Shown here: in pieces, positions 8,776-51,477 of the stretch | Position numbering within the stretch: the first letter of the stretch is position 1 | Layout of the letters: each line of letters starts with the position of its first letter | NCBI GenBank assembly: GCA_043809585.1 | Contig: JBDROZ010000069.1 | Location: 1-64,000, forward strand | Source of the DNA: Candidatus Eiseniibacteriota bacterium | GTDB taxonomy: Bacteria > Orphanbacterota > Orphanbacteria > Orphanbacterales > Orphanbacteraceae | Reading direction: 5' to 3' | DNA: 64,000 bases | The notes under the pieces: generated by a model | The model's database searches: none | What the model saw: only the letters and a program-made list of their open reading frames with translations | Told to the model about the DNA's origin: nothing | Translations under genes and position numbers: made by a program

Positions 8776-9051
8776 CTACCAGCGCTTGCGACCGCCGCCG
8801 CCGCCGCCGCCTTCCTCGCGCTTCTTGGCTTCGCTGACCGTCAGGTTCCGTCCACCCATCTCGACGCCGTTGAGGGCGCTCATCGCGGCCTCGGCGCCGC
8901 TGCTCATCTCCACGAAGCCGAACCCTCGGGGCCGACCGGTGTCACGGTCGGTGATCAGGTTGACCGAATCGACGCTGCCGTGCTGCTCGAACATGGCGCG
9001 CAATTCGGCTTCCGTGGCGCTGAAAGGGAGGTTTCCGACATACATCTTCAT
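8776..9051 (-). CDS. RRM RNA-binding protein with Gly-rich tail (copy 1)
   Basis: RNP2 MYVGNL, RNP1 RGFGFVEM, poly-Gly C-terminus. Confidence 0.95.
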   Translation of the reverse strand: MKMYVGNLPFSATEAELRAMFEQHGSVDSVNLITDRDTGRPRGFGFVEMSSGAEAAMSALNGVEMGGRNLTVSEAKKREEGGGGGGGRKRW

Positions 9052-9293
9052 TTCCGACTCCAATTCCATTCCGCCCCAAGATCTACAGGCTGAGCCGAGC
9101 CGGCGCCATGCCGTCGGCCCTCGGTCCGGACCGGGACTTCCGCTCTCTGCGCGATAAACCGGTTTCGGACATAGCTTCGAATCATCACTCCGGCACCATG
9201 GTTCGAATCAACGGGGGCGTAAGCGGCGAGTCGATTCGGCAGGAGGTATCCATCGCTATGCCCTAATTATCGTCAAAATCCTTCTCCAGTCAA
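9052..9293 (-). promoter_or_regulatory. Conserved RRM 5' leader plus sigma70-like promoter (copy 1)
   Basis: TTGACT (9293-9288)-N16-GATAAT. The 22-nt box at 9224-9245 is identical to 56059-56080. Confidence 0.7.
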
Positions 9294-10424: not shown

Positions 10425-10605
10425 GGCATCACCGTGTTCAACCCGGTCGTCAAGTCCGGCGTCAAGCCGACCGACCGGGTCGGCGTGACCGGCATCGGCG
10501 GACTCGGGCACTTCGCGCTGCAGTTCCTCTCCGAGTGGGGCTGCGAGGTGACCGCCTTCACATCGACCGGCGCCAAGGCGGAGGAGGCCCTGCGCATGGG
10601 GCGCC
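10425..10605 (+). pseudogene. Internal fragment of a Zn-dependent (Ahr/CAD-like) alcohol dehydrogenase
   Basis: GITVFNP...[16 protein letters not shown]...WGCEVTAFT Rossmann segment, with no N- or C-terminal domain. Confidence 0.75.
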
Positions 10606-10635
10606 CTTCGTCGTTTCCGTGTCGTGGTTCCGCCC

Positions 10636-11679
10636 TCAGCGGATCAGCGTGATCTTCCGGCTGATCGCCTCGGCGCCCTTCTCGAGGCGCGTGAAGTAGA
10701 CGCCCGACGGGACTTCGGCGCCCGAGCGATCCCGTCCGTCCCACGTCACGGAGTGTTCCCCCGCGGGCATTCGCCCACGGGCGAGGGTCGCGATCAGCCG
10801 GCCCGAGACGCCGTGAACGGACAGGGAAACGTCGCCCGGTTCCGGAAGAACGTAGCGGATCGTCGTCGACGGGTTGAACGGGTTGGGCGCGTTCGGACCG
10901 AGAACGAGACGGAGCGGGACCGCCCCTTCGTCGACACTCACGTCGTTCGCCCTGAGCGGCGCGCTCCACCCCTGGCGAATCCTCTTGTTGCTCGTCTGCT
11001 GCACGAAAACGTGGTTCACCAGCCCGTCGGGATCGACGGCCGAATCGGGAATGGCGTAGGACCAGTCGAAGTGGAGGGAATCGCCAAGGCGGAGATACAT
11101 CTCGTCGGTGGTGATCACGAAGTCCCGCATCGGGTAGTGGAACGTGCCTTCCCGAACCTCGACGACCGATTCGGTCGCCACGAGATAAATCTGCTGGCCG
11201 CCGGACATCGTCTCTTCCACGATCACGTCGAAGCTCACGAAGACCGAATCGTCGGTCCTGTACTGGTCCGCCTCGATCCGGAGCGGGCTCGGGACGGCGA
11301 GAAGACTGTCGACGGTGCTCCGGAAGTACTCGTAGAACGCGTCCTCGTCGGGAAAGTCGTACAGGTCCTTCAGATTCCTGCCGTCGAAACGGAGGGTGGG
11401 AACGTAGTTCACGCCGTAGAAGTTGCGGCGGTTCATGGCGTCCACCGGATTCCACAGGAACATGGGATCCAAGGGACTCGGCCAGTAGACGTGGATGCGG
11501 ATCGGAGCAACCTGCCCCGCGTACGACTCAAAGATCGCATTCATGCTGTCTTTGATCGCATTGCAGCCCGCTCAGTCGACGTTGGTGAAGTCCTCGACCG
11601 TCACCATCCGCTGCACCGCGAGCACAGGAGCCCCGACCGACAACAATGTGGCAAGCGCCAACACCATTCGAAGCGCCAA
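10636..11679 (-). CDS. Secreted Omp28/thioredoxin-like protein with FlgD-type C-terminal domain; probable selenoprotein (in-frame TGA 11574-11572)
   Basis: AAGGAGG RBS, TTG start, signal peptide, then [13 protein letters not shown] in frame with the 302-aa ORF ([19 protein letters not shown] tail). Confidence 0.85.
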
Positions 11680-11864
11680 TGGACCGCCTCCTTGTCGAAG
11701 GACGACAATCGGACTCGAGGGGGGGAAGCTTCTTCAGTATACCACGAGGAGGCCGATTTCGGGGGAAATCGGCCCCCTGGGGCGATCCGCGCCCGCATCT
11801 CCCGTGAAATAAAGGGTTGCCGCGGCGCGCCGGGGCTTCCGGCGGAATACCCCGCGGCCTCAAG

Positions 11865-26100: not shown

Positions 26101-26888
26101 CAAGGCTCGACCCGATCGGCACGCTGCAGGACGGCCATCCCATCCAGCCGGAAGACGACCACACGCCGGGCGCCGGGACTCATTGCTACGTGACGGGGAA
26201 CGGCACCATCGGCGGGACCGCCGGCGAGAACGACGTGGACGGCGGCAAGACCACCCTCTTCACGCCCGTCTTCGATCTGTCCGACGCGGTGGGCGCCACC
26301 ATCGGCTACTGGCGGTGGTACTCCAACTCGTGGGGGAACGATCCGGACAACGACTGGTGGGACGTCGACGCGACCGCCGACGGCATGAGCTGGGAGAGCC
26401 TCGAGCACACCTCCCAGACGATCGCCGCGTGGACCGAACAGACATTCGATCTGGCGGCATACGTCCCCCTGACCGATCAGGTGCAAATCCGCTTCGTCGC
26501 CTCCGACGAAGGGAGCGGTTCCCTGGTCGAAGCGGGGGTGGACGACTTCATCCTCGCGGCGGTCCGTGTCGTCTACACGGACGTGGAGGGGGCGGAATCG
26601 GGGCCGCCGGCGAAGCTCGCCCTCGGCATGAACACGCCGAACCCGTTCAATCCGACCACGACGATCCACTTCGACCTCCCGAAGCCGGCCGTGGTGGAGC
26701 TCTCGATCTACGACATCACCGGCCGCCGCGTGGCCACGCTGGTCAGCGGGAAGCTGGAGGCGGGCCGCCACGAGGCGGTCTGGACGGGACGGGGCGTGGA
26801 CGGACAGGCGGCGGGGAGCGGCCTCTACTTCAGCCGCCTCAAGGCGGACGGCGAGACGAAGACCCGGAAGATGCTGCTCTTGAAATAA
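23193..26888 (+). CDS. Gingipain-like C25 cysteine peptidase with propeptide, Ig-like repeats and FlgD-type C-terminal domain
   Basis: GAPNLP propeptide, PFQYNP, LLLGD, HRDHG and SVNCLTG (His/Cys dyad), PNPFNP tail; signal peptide. Confidence 0.88.
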   Translation: MKPHPLFPAALLFAALLLATSGFAVTHTYTDGWADAGLHVTGQGVAGVDLTFSLTVWDQGEMELEGRSMQTVGVPGLPLPGEAGAPNLPGMSRFIAVPNGAEVYVRIVDSRTETYADVEIAPAPRIPRETEDGPLEYPRNQSIYDSDEFYPGAPVTLSAPRFVRGVESRMLGIAPFQYNPVTRELVVYRDLRVEVTFEGGTGVFAEERLRNRWWEPILADLFANYESIGKAPPAPRSDSRTDDFEYVIICPDDPAFVAWADSLKRWRTEQGIRTGVVTTADIGGNTIPAIESYLNNAYMTWSIPPSAALLLGDYGTTGARITSPIWSSYCLSDNIFADVDGDDLPDIVLARITAQNEADLANMIGKMLGYERQPPTAADFYSSPIMAGGWQTERWFILCEEVLYGYFANVLGKNPVREYAIYSGTPGSVWSTATNTATVVNYFGPNGLGYIPQTPAHLTDWGGNATRINSDINRGSFMLQHRDHGANDGWGEPYYVTGHLSALSNDELTFVFSVNCLTGQFNLTGNSFAEAFHHHARGALGIIAATEVSYSFVNDAYVWGMYDYMWPDFDPGYGIPGPAQVLPAFANASGKYYLEASSWPYNTTEKTVTYHLFHHHGDAFMTVYSEVPENLTVSHDGALLSGMDYFTVTADGGSWIGLSAGGEFLGAASGTGSPVNITIPPLVSGEELLVTVTKQDHYRYEHAVTVVPPDGPFLIYEGHSIADGGGDNDGAADEGETIDLEVTLENVGTETAIGVIGVLSTADPHVTIIEDNESFDDIPAGGFGTTLSPFVVEIHGDAPDGHSAEFLLSIAIGDSVREASFSVPIDAPLFTVAGLLIDDIFGGDGNGNVNAGETVNFEVVLANEGHSDAEITSAVLTSTEGDVTILGGDGECGALPVSGTGWMGTFSASVAVGCPEPANLAFHLEVTAENGFVSSLDFDMPVGGWFDDMEEYRAWSVGAPDDDASSGIWARLDPIGTLQDGHPIQPEDDHTPGAGTHCYVTGNGTIGGTAGENDVDGGKTTLFTPVFDLSDAVGATIGYWRWYSNSWGNDPDNDWWDVDATADGMSWESLEHTSQTIAAWTEQTFDLAAYVPLTDQVQIRFVASDEGSGSLVEAGVDDFILAAVRVVYTDVEGAESGPPAKLALGMNTPNPFNPTTTIHFDLPKPAVVELSIYDITGRRVATLVSGKLEAGRHEAVWTGRGVDGQAAGSGLYFSRLKADGETKTRKMLLLK

Positions 26889-27717: not shown

Positions 27718-27985
27718 TCCTAAAATGCCCGGCCCCGGGGGGTTGGGAGCGTCGGGTCGAGGGAAGTCCCGAGCCTCCGGGGGGCTTCCGGGGGAGGGCG
27801 TCCCTTGCTCCCCCCGAGGGGCAGCAATCTCTCTTTCCCCCTGGACCATCACAAGAGACTGTGATAAAATCAGATACGTCTATGGAGGGATGGGCGGTCG
27901 GGAGGAGGGGATCCACATGTCGGGTAACATCCTCGTGGACTGGGTCGGTTCCTCCCCGGACCTTCCCGGATAGGGAGTGAGGAGC

Positions 27986-29671
27986 ATGATGGCGTACCCG
28001 CCACGAATCGCCGCGCTTTTGTTCTCCGGAATCATGGCCTGGACCGCCGCCGCCGCCGAACCGGCGCTCGAGTGGCAGAGCCTCTACGACGGGGGGGGCC
28101 TGGTGCTCGACATGGGGGTCGCGGCCGTCACCGACCCCGCCGGCAACCTCGTGATCGCCGGGGAGAGCGTCGACGCCCTGGGAGGCGTGGACATGATCAT
28201 CCACAAGCTCGACCGGTCCACGGGGGACACGCTCTGGACCCGGAGGGTCCCCTCCCTGGACGGCAACGACATGGCCGTGGGCGGCATGGTGTGGGATCAC
28301 GCCGGCCATCTCCTGATCGGAGGGACCCGTCTCGGATGCTTCGGGTGAGGCCAGGGCGATGACGTCGTCGTCTTCGAGTTGGACGGCGCGACCGGGGAGT
28401 TTCTCTGGTACAAGGCCTACGGAAGCCAAGAAGGACTGGACGAGTCGGTCTACGATATCGCCGTCGACGGGGCGGGCAATGCCTTCGTCACCGGCCGTCA
28501 GATGAACGGCGACGGGGGCGACGACATCATGACCATGAAGCTCCGCGCCTCGGACGGGGAGATCCTCTGGAGGGTGCACGAAGGGGGCGCGGCGATGCTC
28601 GCCGACCGGGGGTGGGCGATCGCGGTGGGCCCCGACGGCCATCCGGTGGTGACCGGCGTCCTCACGACCGCGGCCGACCCGGCCCTCTACTGCACCGTGA
28701 AGTACGACAGCGACGACGGCTCGGAGATCTGGAAAAAGACCTTCCCCGGCGCCGTCAACTACGTCGAGACCGAGGCCGGCTGGCTCGCGGTGTTGGGCGA
28801 CGGCGACATCGTCATGGCGAACCGGACCTGGACGACCCTGACCTCCTACGATGTGGTGCTCCACCGCTACGACGGGACGACGGGGGACACGGCCTGGACG
28901 ACCACGTACAACTCGGGGGGTACCGCCGGCGACGACCCGCGCTTCATGACCCGGGACGGAGCGGGCGACATCCTCGTGGCCGGTATCCGCTCCGGTAACT
29001 ACATGGTCGCCAAGTTCGACGCCTCGGACGGCGGGCTCCTCTGGGACGCCTCCTACGACGGACCCTCCGGCGGATACGACCGGGCCGCCTACGTGATGGA
29101 AGGTTCCGGGGGCGAGATTCTGGCCACCGGGTTCAGCACCGGCGAGGGAACGAGCTGGGACGTCACGACCGTCGGTTTCGATCCGGCGGATGGCGCGGAG
29201 CTCTGGGCCGTGCATTTCGATCCGGGCGAAGGGCGGGGGGACGAGGGGAAGTGCCTGGCCATCAGCGATCTGGGCGACGTCTACGTCGTGGGCTACGGCG
29301 ACTTCGAGGCCACGGGGAGCGACATGCTCGCCCTCCGTTACAGCCTTCCCCAATCGACGGGCGTCGGAAGCGGGCCGTACGCCGGGGCCCCCGGTCCCGG
29401 GTTCAGGGTCGGCGCGAGCCCCAACCCGTTCGTGAACCGCCTCGCCCTCTCGATCGACATGGAACGGCCCGGTCCGGCCCGGGTCGCGGTCTACGACCTC
29501 CGGGGGCGGCGGACGGCCCTCATCCATGACGGCGACCTCTCTTCCGGGCGCCACGATTTCGACTGGGACGGCCGGGACGAGGGGGGCCGGCGGCTCGCGG
29601 CGGGCGTCTACTTCGTTCGTTTCGAGGGCGCCGGGGCCGAAGGCGCGCGCAAGGTGATTCTCAGCCGGTAA
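27986..29671 (+). CDS. Secreted beta-propeller (PQQ/SBBP-like repeats) with FlgD-type C-terminal domain; probable selenoprotein (in-frame TGA 28346-28348)
   Basis: The 123-aa and 430-aa ORFs share one frame: ...GGTRLGCFG*GQGDDVVVFELDGATG..., continuing the repeat register. Signal peptide; SPNPF tail. Confidence 0.8.
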
Positions 29672-35010: not shown

Positions 35011-35631
35011 TCGGAAGCGTCCGATGACATATCATGTGTCTGGATCTTCGATGCCTCCGATCGGATCGCCGGAACGGGCGATTCCGCGGCCCTTCCCCGC
35101 CCCACGAACGAGATCCACGTCCCGGCCGTCCGAAACGTCTACCGAACTAAACTGACGCCCGAGGGGGACGAGATCCTCTATACCGTCACGAAGACGTCGG
35201 GATCGGCGAACGCCGGCCACGGAATCGCCGTCGGCGGCGAAGGGGACGTGTACTTCACCGGCGCGGAAAACGTACCGGCCGAGTTCTGCGTATCCAGGAT
35301 CTCGGAGGGGAGCACGGTCGCCACCTCCGTCGAGACCGGGCCGGCCGTCGTCACGAGGACGCACCTCTTCGAGCCGCGACCGAACCCCTTCAACCCGACT
35401 ACGTCGATCCGCTTCGCCATTCCCGAGGCGTCCCGGGTCCGTCTCGCCGTGTACGATGCGGCGGGGCGCCTCGTGTCGATCCTCGCCGACGGTTCCTTCC
35501 CCGTGGGCGAGTTCGAGCGTATTGGGGATGGTCGGGATCAGGCGGGGCGGGCGGCGCCGTCGGGGGTCTACTTCGCCCGTCTCCAAGCGGATCGGCGGGC
35601 GGACACGAAGAAGCTGGTCCTGGTTCGATGA
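35011..35631 (+). pseudogene. 5'-truncated remnant of an SBBP-repeat/FlgD C-terminal-domain protein
   Basis: The frame is open from 35011 (…GHGIAVGGEGDVYFTG…PNPFNP…KKLVLVR) but has no credible start or signal peptide. Confidence 0.6.
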
Positions 35632-36297: not shown

Positions 36298-37200
36298 ATG
36301 AGAAGGCTGGTCGCACTTCTGGTTTTTCTGTCGGTCCTATCCATCACCTCGGCGTCGGCCCAGTTGCTCTTTTCCGACGATTTCGAAGCCGGTGCGCGTC
36401 CGGAATGGGGCAATGAGTATGGAGCATGGATCGCCAGCAACGGCGTCTACTCCGCATCATTGCCCAATAACGACCCTCCCACCTATTCGAGCGTGACCAG
36501 CTTGCCCGATCTGACCGATTTTGTCGTCGAGATCGATATCCTCGATACTCGAGACGGCGGCGTCTTTCTGCGAAGTCGGCGTTGCGCCAACGAGCAGATC
36601 GAAGGCGTGCTCTTTCTCGTGGGCGGGTTCGGCGGGTCTTACCACGGTTGCTACTGGCACATCTGGACCTGCACCGGAAGCGGCCCACCTCTCCAAACGG
36701 TGGAGGTTCCTGGGTTGCAGGGCAATGATATCCACATTCGGCTTGTCGTCACCGGAGATACGTACACCGCGTACCTCAACGACGATCCGACCCCGGTCAA
36801 CAGCCTCGTTACCGACGCATACTCCTCCGGGAAGGTAGCGCTCTACGAGTTCGTTGATCAGTCCTTTGACAACGTGACCATCACCGGGGTGGCAACCGGT
36901 GTTCACGAAGGCACGGTTCCGCCGCGTGCCCGACAGTGCTCGCTCTATCCCAATCCGTTCAATCCCAGTGCTTCCGTGTGGTTGGATCTTCCGAGGGCCG
37001 AGTTCATCAGAGTCGAGGTCTTTAACACAATCGGCAGGCTCGTCGCCACTCTTCACGAGGGCGTGACGGGCCCGGGTCGAGTGGAGATTCCCTGGGATGG
37101 GCGCAGCGACATAGGTACTCGCGCTTCCAGCGGGATCTACTACTTTCGCGCTTCCGGAACAACGGACCAGACAGTAGTGAAGGGAGTTCTGTCGAGATAA
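36298..37200 (+). CDS. Secreted DUF1080/ConA-like beta-sandwich protein with FlgD-type C-terminal domain
   Basis: Signal peptide, FSDDFE, DGGVFLR, SGKVAL...FDNV, YPNPFNP; lower GC than the flanks. Confidence 0.75.
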   Translation: MRRLVALLVFLSVLSITSASAQLLFSDDFEAGARPEWGNEYGAWIASNGVYSASLPNNDPPTYSSVTSLPDLTDFVVEIDILDTRDGGVFLRSRRCANEQIEGVLFLVGGFGGSYHGCYWHIWTCTGSGPPLQTVEVPGLQGNDIHIRLVVTGDTYTAYLNDDPTPVNSLVTDAYSSGKVALYEFVDQSFDNVTITGVATGVHEGTVPPRARQCSLYPNPFNPSASVWLDLPRAEFIRVEVFNTIGRLVATLHEGVTGPGRVEIPWDGRSDIGTRASSGIYYFRASGTTDQTVVKGVLSR

Positions 37201-49908: not shown

Positions 49909-51477
49909 ATGAACCGTTCGCTCCTGATGCTCGCCGCCATTACGATCATCTTCTCCGGCCCGGCGTTCCCATTCGCGAGTGAAAGCCCCGTGGAAGTCTC
50001 GTCGGACGGCCACGAGACGGTGATCCTCGTCCCGTCCGAAACGGATGGGAGTGTGATCGCCTCACGCTCCTCCGTCCCCTACGGCGCCGCTCCGGACTGG
50101 CAGAACAACCTCCGCCGCCAAGTGGGGGGGCTCCAGGTGGCGGACATGAACGGCGACGGGCGGATGGACGTCGTCGCCGGCTGCTACATCTCGAGCAGTT
50201 ACCCGCCCTACGATCATTGGGAAAACCTGATCTACTTCAACACGGGGACCGAACTCGAAACGGACCCGAGCTGGGTCTCGGCCGACGAGGTCTCCACGGG
50301 CGATGTTCAGGTGGCGGACATCGACAATGACTCGTTCCCGGACATCTTCGCCGCCAACGGCGGATCCTCTATGTCTCCCTCCGTCATCTACTGGGGAAGC
50401 GCGGCCGGGCCTTCCCCGTCGCCCGGCTGGATCAGCGCGGAACCGGCGCTCGCGTGGAACAACTACGCCCTCCCCTTCGACATCGATCACGACGGCGATG
50501 TGGACATGATCACCGCGAACCAGGGCAACTCGCCTACCGACGCCTTCCGTCCGATGTACATCTTCTTCAACGACGCCGGCGCCTTGGCGAACGTGCCGGG
50601 TTGGGCTTCGGCGGAATGGTCGATCCAGAACTTCCTCGCCATGGCGGACTACGACGGGGACGGATGGGAGGACCTGGCCGTCTCCAAGTGGTCCAACTGG
50701 GAGAGCGCCGTCTACCGGAACGACGACGGGCAGATCTTGACCGCGCCGATCTGGACCACCGGCGACACCGATTCGGACAAGGGGGTTGCGTGGGCGGACG
50801 TCGACGGCAACGGCTATCCCGACCTCGCCCTCGGCCACGACCCGACGGAGATCTGGTCGAACGATGCCGGAGCCCTCTCCCTGGGGTGGACGTCGGGCGC
50901 GACCTATTTCGGCCACAGCGACATCCGGTTCTGCGATGTCGACCGGGACGGGGACGAGGACCTCGCGGAGATCCACTTCTCCGACGGCAAGGTGCACATC
51001 TACATGAACGACGGCGGCCTGCTCGAATCGGCTCCCTCCTGGACCTACGACTCGCCGACGGTGGGCACAGCGATCGCCTTCGGCGACATTAACGGCGACG
51101 ATTGGCCCGACCTCGTGGTGGGGAACTCGGGGGAGCCGTGCGTGAAGGTGTTCTACGCCGATCCCGCCACGACGGTGGACGGCGCCTCTCCGGCGCCGGC
51201 CCTCTCCGCCCTCGCCCCGGCCGCTCCGAATCCGTTCAACCCGTCGACGACGCTCCGCGTCCGTCTGGACGAAGCCGGCCCCGCGCGACTTTCCATTCTC
51301 GACGGTCGGGGGCGCGCCGTGAGGACTCTGGTCGACCGGCCGATGGATGCGGGAGAGCACCGGGTGATCTGGGACGGGAAGGACGACGGCGGGCGCCCGG
51401 CGGCTTCGGGGGTCTACTTCGCCCGCCTCGTGTCGCCCGCCGCCATGGACACGGAGAAGCTGGTCCTTGTCCGGTGA
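49909..51477 (+). CDS. Secreted FG-GAP/VCBS repeat protein with FlgD-type C-terminal domain
   Basis: Repeated DxxxDGxxD motifs, signal peptide, PNPFNP. Confidence 0.88.
   Translation: MNRSLLMLAAITIIFSGPAFPFASESPVEVSSDGHETVILVPSETDGSVIASRSSVPYGAAPDWQNNLRRQVGGLQVADMNGDGRMDVVAGCYISSSYPPYDHWENLIYFNTGTELETDPSWVSADEVSTGDVQVADIDNDSFPDIFAANGGSSMSPSVIYWGSAAGPSPSPGWISAEPALAWNNYALPFDIDHDGDVDMITANQGNSPTDAFRPMYIFFNDAGALANVPGWASAEWSIQNFLAMADYDGDGWEDLAVSKWSNWESAVYRNDDGQILTAPIWTTGDTDSDKGVAWADVDGNGYPDLALGHDPTEIWSNDAGALSLGWTSGATYFGHSDIRFCDVDRDGDEDLAEIHFSDGKVHIYMNDGGLLESAPSWTYDSPTVGTAIAFGDINGDDWPDLVVGNSGEPCVKVFYADPATTVDGASPAPALSALAPAAPNPFNPSTTLRVRLDEAGPARLSILDGRGRAVRTLVDRPMDAGEHRVIWDGKDDGGRPAASGVYFARLVSPAAMDTEKLVLVR

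Follow-up and report, generated by a model that had tools for sequence, protein, structure and literature searches.

The window analyzed here is the whole 64,000-nucleotide stretch of contig JBDROZ010000069.1, taken from the genome assembly of a Candidatus Eiseniibacteriota bacterium. On its minus strand, between positions 10636 and 11679, lies a reading frame with a single in-frame TGA near its start and a hairpin just beyond it. An earlier note, made from the letters alone, had read this arrangement as a hidden, secreted selenoprotein. Having compared the locus with its relatives, the rest of the genome, and a predicted structure, we consider it very likely that 10636-11679 (minus strand) is one gene encoding the 347-residue precursor of an exported thioredoxin-like selenoprotein, with selenocysteine (Sec, U) in its active site.

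Gene structure and reading frame

All coordinates of this gene refer to the minus strand. A Shine-Dalgarno-like AAGGAGG, read directly in the sequence (11687..11693), is separated by a 7-nt spacer from the TTG start codon of the full-length gene (11677..11679). The resulting N-terminus is level with those of 19 homologues, which in the family alignment begin M-[RK]-x-R and continue into a hydrophobic stretch. An ATG four codons downstream of the TTG (11667-11665) may serve as an alternative start. Residues 1-21 (11617..11679) resemble a signal peptide in both sequence and alignment, with a likely signal peptidase I site between VLA and VQR. Across the aligned family, A19 and R24 hardly vary, and the AlphaFold2 model places a low-confidence helix at residues 2-15; the signal peptide is a prediction.

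The in-frame TGA (11572..11574) falls at codon 36, where it would specify U36, the first residue of a UxxC motif; this assignment draws on the sequence and on the TGA/Cys column described below. The TGC codon of the resolving cysteine, C39, follows at 11563..11565, and its column is invariant across the family alignment of 20 sequences. The read-through product has 347 residues, this single internal TGA, and the motif U36-A-G-C39, after which the protein continues NAIKD. Past the TGA, the frame runs unbroken into a 302-residue open reading frame (ORF) that extends from an ATG at 11544 to the stop (10636..11544), and the gene closes with its own TGA stop codon at 10636..10638. The ribosome-binding site, the TTG at 11679, the hydrophobic, signal-peptide-like start, the TGA at 11574-11572, the 347-residue read-through, and the hairpin are thus all located where the earlier note had placed them.

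The TGA/cysteine column and the hairpin

The phylum was sampled with 10 species genomes, and all homologous places in them were translated (n = 30). Homologues occurred in 10 of the 10 genomes. Twenty-nine of the 30 places carry the motif; at the position of U36, 15 of these have TGA and 14 have Cys, with no other residue, so this check, proposed in the earlier note, came out in favor. Two of the TGA forms are full-length paralogs in the same genome as the window, 46% and 41% identical to its protein and containing one TGA each (motifs FTNTGUGGCNAI and FTNWTUSYCNAI; shared pattern FTNxxUxxCNAI). The same genome also holds a distant Cys paralog with the motif FSNTACDPC. The Cys forms comprise five close relatives that share the architecture and read CPSC or CPPC, and nine members of a longer group whose N-terminus differs. 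In one related genome, two Sec-form paralogs stand in tandem, about 500 nt apart (G005:C31:106011-107936; L043, L053).

The 20-sequence alignment leaves out the nine distant Cys forms and a fragment, G009:C386. In it, E29, N33, U/C36, C39, H63, P67, D71, Y88, P94, G100, and R185 are invariant. Conservation extends to both flanks of the TGA, and the 19 homologues share the form of the signal-peptide-like N-terminus that precedes it. An unrooted maximum-likelihood tree of the 20 proteins implies one or two Sec/Cys changes, with a single change in 28% of bootstrap trees, and Sec forms sit on both sides of its deepest split. Since the tree is unrooted, an ancestral Sec state is no more than a reasonable guess. 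A collection-wide scan with the N-terminal alignment recovered two loci from 205 pattern matches, both already in the set, and so adds no independent evidence.

The hairpin, UCAAAGA-CA-GCA[UGAA]UGC-GA-UCUUUGA, lies within the coding sequence at 11522..11560, inside a wider fold spanning 11573-11505. Its apical loop, UGAA (11543-11540), is 28 nt past the UGA. It is part of the minimum free energy (MFE) fold of a 76-nt stretch at −29.8 kcal/mol (z −3.42), and none of 200 dinucleotide shuffles folded as well. We compared Sec and Cys forms over nt 13-56 past the codon. All 15 Sec forms have a hairpin there (MFE −10.6 to −24.7 kcal/mol, z −1.4 to −6.2), whereas the five close Cys forms show a weak one or none (−4.6 to −8.3 kcal/mol, z −0.05 to +1.1). 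These close Cys forms encode a similar peptide (xIKDxxDxI), yet without a stable hairpin. The arrangement is more than chance, because the same TGA and hairpin recur at 14 other loci in the 10 genomes.

Covariation was assessed in the 12 Sec forms of the main clade, leaving out the three loci of the WTNDQU / WSNVLU group, in which the hairpin is shorter and starts about 12 nt past the UGA. Across the 14-pair helix, 81% of 168 cells are paired, and 9 of the 14 pairs have changed on both sides. None of 500 shuffles reached the observed pairing or covariation; since the rows are related, this count is not a probability. Controls in which the partner was slid by 1-3 columns preserve that relatedness, and in them pairing fell to 28-45%. 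The hairpin resembles the E. coli fdhF-type selenocysteine insertion sequence (SECIS) in lying within the coding sequence just 3′ of the UGA and in having its apical loop 28 nt downstream with a G in the loop, but it differs in that the apical stem and loop size vary among the 15 loci. The bSECISearch literature reportedly sets a spacing of 16-37 nt and a G among the first two loop bases. The earlier proposal of a SECIS element is borne out insofar as the hairpin is conserved, covaries, and is weak or missing in the five close Cys forms.

These comparisons bear on the simplest rival, in which the TGA simply terminates translation, nothing upstream of it in the frame is coding, and the true gene is the 302-residue ORF beginning at ATG 11544. 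Public annotation follows exactly that form. All 11 public protein clusters found have 301-325 residues and cover 72-82% of the query, one of them being the window's own ORF; their names are uninformative, two being called “hypothetical protein.” All seven that were fetched start at a Met located ten residues past the TGA. However, the 302-residue product would lack the signal peptide, the UxxC, the first β-strand, and the start of helix 1, while 19 homologues preserve the 35 upstream codons, including those of the signal peptide, and the Cys forms read straight through the position. The annotated ATG (11544-11542) also overlaps the apical loop of the covarying hairpin, its U and G being loop bases 1 and 2. 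We regard an ordinary stop here as very improbable.

The genome assembly (123 contigs, 4.2 Mb, 97.5% complete) was searched for the selenocysteine machinery. A tRNA-Sec scored 73 bits against a cut-off of 47 and was called tRNA-SeC with anticodon tca by ARAGORN. Genome profile searches returned SelB (358.8 bits against 242), SelA (535.4 against 268), and SelD (361.4 against 125). The earlier note had named this machinery as one of its checks. Because tRNA-Sec, SelA, SelB, and SelD all exceed their curated cut-offs, the genome is equipped to make selenoproteins. The SelD gene (G000:C19:30755-31678, L018) has one in-frame TGA of its own and so is probably a selenoprotein itself.

A second rival grants read-through but has the UGA read as Trp, Cys, or Gly, through a variant code or near-cognate suppression. 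Computational analysis does not distinguish which residue is inserted. The family genes close with ...L[IV]R, and the stop codon directly behind it is TGA in some homologues and TAA or TAG in others; TGA is thus still a stop codon in these genomes. A reassigned genetic code is thereby ruled out: TGA ends this gene and many relatives where others have TAA or TAG, so neither code 4 nor code 25 applies. The complete Sec pathway, a site that aligns with Cys only, and a hairpin with the position and form of a bacterial SECIS also argue against another residue, and we give this explanation very little weight.

It could also be that a Cys codon (TGC or TGT) became TGA in a pseudogene or through an assembly error. 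Such a conversion takes a one-base change, and the related locus G009:C386 looks broken. Two public sequencing runs, neither recorded as RNA, contained a third and a ninth of the sampled words, respectively, and no contig from them spans 11461-11665, a stretch that includes the TGA. Set against this, TGA stands at 15 loci among the 10 genomes, three of them paralogs within this genome (41-46% identity). Apart from it, the reading frames are whole, and a specific hairpin accompanies the Sec forms but not the close Cys forms. Nonsense mutations or errors arising separately at each locus would bring no covarying hairpin. This explanation is close to refuted, and selenocysteine remains the preferred reading of the codon.

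Fold, predicted export tail, and known relatives

A model predicted by AlphaFold2 from the 20-row alignment reaches a mean predicted local distance difference test score (pLDDT) of 84.4 and divides the protein into three domains. The first is thioredoxin-like (residues 22-128; 11296..11616; pLDDT 88-96), with strands (E) and helices (H) in the order E26-32, H37-52, E57-63, H72-88, E95-98, and H112-127. The UxxC lies at the start of H37-52, and invariant P94 directly precedes strand β3 (E95-98). In the model, this topology, the UxxC at the N-terminus of helix 1, and the conserved Pro are those of a thioredoxin fold. E29 and P94, both near the motif, may correspond to the buried acid and the cis-proline that thioredoxins have. 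The middle domain is an Omp28-like β-sandwich (residues 129-245; 10945..11295; model strands 133-241). A flexible linker (residues 246-256; 10912..10944; pLDDT below 50) leads to a C-terminal Ig-like sorting domain of FlgD_ig or type IX secretion system (T9SS) type A kind (residues 257-347; 10639..10911), whose β-sandwich spans residues 272-345 of the model.

Structure comparison supports the fold and the export tail that the earlier note had proposed. The top Foldseek match in the PDB was HBP35 of Porphyromonas gingivalis (5y1a; E 6.9e-12, template modeling score 0.52/0.57). Superposition on 5y1a aligned 276 of 314 residues, covering model residues 22-346, with Z 22.6; the overall root-mean-square deviation (rmsd) of 13.7 reflects a different orientation of the domains. 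The DUF1223-type protein AGR_C_4864 (2axo) matched at Z 18.8 and rmsd 3.1 over 199 residues, and the Omp28 domain 2r2c at Z 8.7 and rmsd 2.4 over 111 residues (model 71-246). Thus, 5y1a and 2axo match the thioredoxin-like domain, and 2r2c and 2axo the middle domain. The Omp28 family (NF033782, 2r2c) and 2axo resemble the window protein in this thioredoxin-like/β-sandwich fold. To our knowledge, neither the 2r2c nor the 2axo protein is a selenoprotein. Unlike the Omp28 lipoproteins, the window protein lacks a lipobox cysteine; a lipoprotein is rejected, as residues 1-35 contain no Cys and no lipobox.

By sequence, the best NCBIfam match was NF045500, “Omp28-related selenoprotein” (43.6 bits, E 2.5e-11), over residues 23-254 and profile positions 38-280 of 377. 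The motif that this model describes, a UxxC in a thioredoxin-like domain, is present. We read the match as significant homology and not as equivalog membership; judged from sequence, the window protein is a divergent relative of the NF045500 family. Pfam matches are confined to FlgD_ig in the tail and a weak Thioredoxin_4. A PDB sequence search matched the tail to FlgD Ig-like domains only and returned nothing for the N-terminal domains. A flagellar FlgD function is rejected, since the match is limited to the Ig-like tail.

The earlier note had called the C-terminus a “FlgD-type export domain.” The export tail stands, but the FlgD-type label is better replaced by T9SS C-terminal domain. Although PF13860 (FlgD_ig) scores 41.3 bits against a cut-off of 27 (E 1.6e-10), the T9SS label is preferred because TIGR04183 (T9SS type A sorting domain) narrowly passes as well, structural superposition matches the tail to the PorU (6za2; Z 10.9, rmsd 2.4) and PorZ (5m11; Z 9.0; rmsd 2.4-2.7 for the two) C-terminal domains, and SprA and PorU occur in the genome. 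SprA scores 532.7 bits summed against a cut-off of 200, and two PorU sortases score 551 and 520 bits against 420; a PorV-like gene adjoins one of the PorU. Besides the three full-length paralogs, the same tail is found in at least 147 places elsewhere in the genome, among the matches listed. Because of these matches and the presence of SprA, two PorU, and a PorV-like gene, the tail is best read as a type IX secretion signal, through which the protein would be secreted.

The tail matches themselves invite two side observations. With at least 147 places, the predicted set of T9SS cargo is very large for a genome of 4.2 Mb; those in the window include, for example, 26577-26885, 29417-29668, 35326-35628, 36895-37155, and 51178-51474. 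Elsewhere, a protein with a T9SS-type tail (G000:C71:10741-10983) belongs to a 646-residue open frame with one TGA, and may be a selenoprotein or a broken gene.

Several results weigh against an exported thioredoxin-like selenoprotein. The fragment G009:C386:3221-3574 (L058) is without the motif region and has its TGA at a different, non-Cys position; the frame after that TGA enters unrelated sequence, and the locus is probably a broken copy or an assembly join. No Rfam bacterial SECIS model matched in 301 nt around the site at a permissive threshold, a further difference from the fdhF-type element; the sole Rfam match, SECIS_4 (12.9 bits, E 6.3), is at chance level, lies upstream of the TGA at 11597-11632, and speaks neither for nor against the reading. 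Three protein profiles stay below their cut-offs: Pfam Thioredoxin_4 (17 bits against 23.2, E 0.0068), NF045500 (43.6 against 200; the best in the whole genome is a paralog at 49.8), and the Omp28 lipoprotein model NF033782 (21.1 against 150). Thiol reductants are not known to occur on a cell surface, and flanks of about 1.5-3 kb at the window gene and related loci contain no conserved redox partner. In the tail, TIGR04183 passes by just 0.9 bit (23.9 against 23), Por_Secre_tail (PF18962) scores 14.6 bits against a cut-off of 27, and the PorV-like gene reaches 107 bits against 250.

These tail scores, together with a FlgD_ig score above its cut-off, favor a reading in which the selenoprotein is real but periplasmic, its C-terminal Ig-like domain being structural, as in FlgD, and holding no working T9SS signal. 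A reductant relay could also reach the protein in the periplasm. The superposition on the PorU and PorZ domains points the other way, as do the position of the tail at the extreme C-terminus behind a flexible linker, its repetition at 147 or more places, as expected of a secretion tag, and the SprA and two PorU genes above their cut-offs. HBP35 shares this layout and is reportedly a cargo of the Por system (PMC3120885). We judge a periplasmic location unlikely, if well short of negligible, and continue to prefer export through the outer membrane.

With regard to novelty, the earlier note had stated that a selenoprotein with such an export-type tail would be unusual. This was overstated: exported, thioredoxin-like UxxC selenoproteins were already predicted in 2008 as GOS_C (PMC2398784), a curated model exists in NF045500, and the architecture is that of HBP35. 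GOS_C was described there as having a thioredoxin-like fold, a UxxC, and a SECIS-like hairpin after the UGA, and the ocean survey counted 74 sequences with Sec and 312 with Cys (Zhang and Gladyshev 2008; PMC2398784). GOS_C sequences in its supplementary file 2 show a hydrophobic N-terminus and V-E/D-D-F-T-x3-U-x2-C (PMC2398784), and a table in a 2022 review lists GOS_C as UxxC, TRX_GRX_like. The window protein is like these sequences in its VEDFT-x3-U-x2-C motif and hydrophobic N-terminus. It is unlike them in the residues of the motif and beyond: the GOS_C examples have Pro in the UxxC and other residues where the window protein has NAIKD.

HBP35 provides the closest architectural parallel, in that thioredoxin-like, Ig-like, and T9SS C-terminal domains are all present in both proteins. 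However, HBP35 has Cys where the window protein has Sec, sequence identity is 13-14%, and the domains are oriented differently. HBP35 also binds hemin; nothing in this analysis pointed to hemin binding by the window protein, and no test for it was made.

Literature searches found no work joining Omp28 with selenoproteins, and none linking selenoproteins to type IX secretion in a title or abstract. The main texts of BSepDB 2026 and deep-Sep 2025 name neither Omp28 nor GOS_C, though their supplements, which were outside our scope, may list such genes. The protein is not a new category of selenoprotein, as its lineage was predicted in 2008 (GOS_C) and has a curated model (NF045500). The window gene very probably encodes a divergent, mis-annotated UxxC selenoprotein, which is exported and combines an HBP35-like architecture with a T9SS tail.

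Proposed activity, neighboring genes, and significance

Based on the sequence, the family comparison, and the model, we propose the following route. The UGA at 11574-11572 would be decoded as selenocysteine by SelB and Sec-tRNA(Sec), directed by the in-frame SECIS hairpin, whose stem begins about 14 nt and whose loop lies 28 nt past the UGA. The general secretory (Sec) translocon would carry the precursor to the periplasm, where the signal peptide would be cleaved and the protein would fold. The SprA/PorU/PorV type IX system would then move it across the outer membrane, to be anchored at the surface or released. Outside the cytoplasm, the protein may perform thiol-disulfide exchange through a U36-C39 selenylsulfide, with selenocysteine as the attacking residue.

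This putative activity is argued by analogy with HBP35, because the two proteins have the three-domain layout in common and HBP35 has CxxC-dependent thioredoxin activity in vitro. In a study of HBP35 (PMC2907840), recombinant HBP35 reduced insulin faster than E. coli thioredoxin, an activity lost in the C48S/C51S mutant; its C-terminal domain was required for outer-membrane transport; and an hbp35 plasmid complemented an E. coli dsbA mutant. Because of this complementation, an oxidase role is also possible.

The surroundings of the window gene contain a membrane spermidine-synthase-like protein and small ORFs without a family. A gene for a TPR-repeat, lipoprotein-like protein follows directly downstream on the same strand at 8 of the 22 related loci, though not at the window gene. 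These loci include L057:1-1167 (-), L048:2543-3715 (+), L040:2-1126 (-), and five more; several are Cys forms, and one is this genome's own C106 paralog. In the window, a 72-residue ORF at 10434-10652 (+) matches the start of an ADH_zinc_N NAD-binding domain (E 5e-4, below the cut-off); it ends within the 3′ end of the selenoprotein gene, on the opposite strand, and looks like a gene remnant. A 97-residue protein at 8776-9069 (-) has a Gly-rich tail and appears RRM-like by eye from its translation, which makes it putatively RNA-binding.

A second likely selenoprotein lies at window positions 27977-29671 (+), where a 564-residue read-through ORF is interrupted by a TGA at 28346-28348. The protein combines a signal-peptide-like start and β-propeller-like repeats with the T9SS-type tail described above, and its only in-frame TGA forms part of a CxxU motif, G-C-[FY]-G-U-G-Q-G-D-D. 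TGA stands at the same position in all four orthologues (65-66% identity; found in 4 of the 10 phylum genomes), and a stable hairpin follows each.

A broader reading joins these elements, and we offer it as speculative and rather doubtful. Sec would be ancestral in this small candidate phylum, and two or three Sec paralogs per genome, exported as T9SS cargo, would form a cell-surface selenoenzyme system for thiol-disulfide exchange beyond the outer membrane, for example in folding or maintaining T9SS surface proteins. Selenium would have been chosen since no reductant relay reaches there, and the CxxU protein with a T9SS tail in the window would belong to the same surface selenoproteome.

With this finding, the HBP35-type surface thioredoxins gain a relative that uses selenium, which points to a use of selenocysteine at the outer membrane or beyond it. 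The 15 Sec and 14 Cys loci provide a natural series for studying a SECIS element written into coding sequence. Since the public entries that were fetched start after the UGA, they lose the signal peptide and the active site, and their readers would miss the exported redox role. Counts of the phylum's selenoproteome accordingly fall short; in this genome there are three paralogs, a SelD that probably contains Sec, and at least one further candidate in the window.

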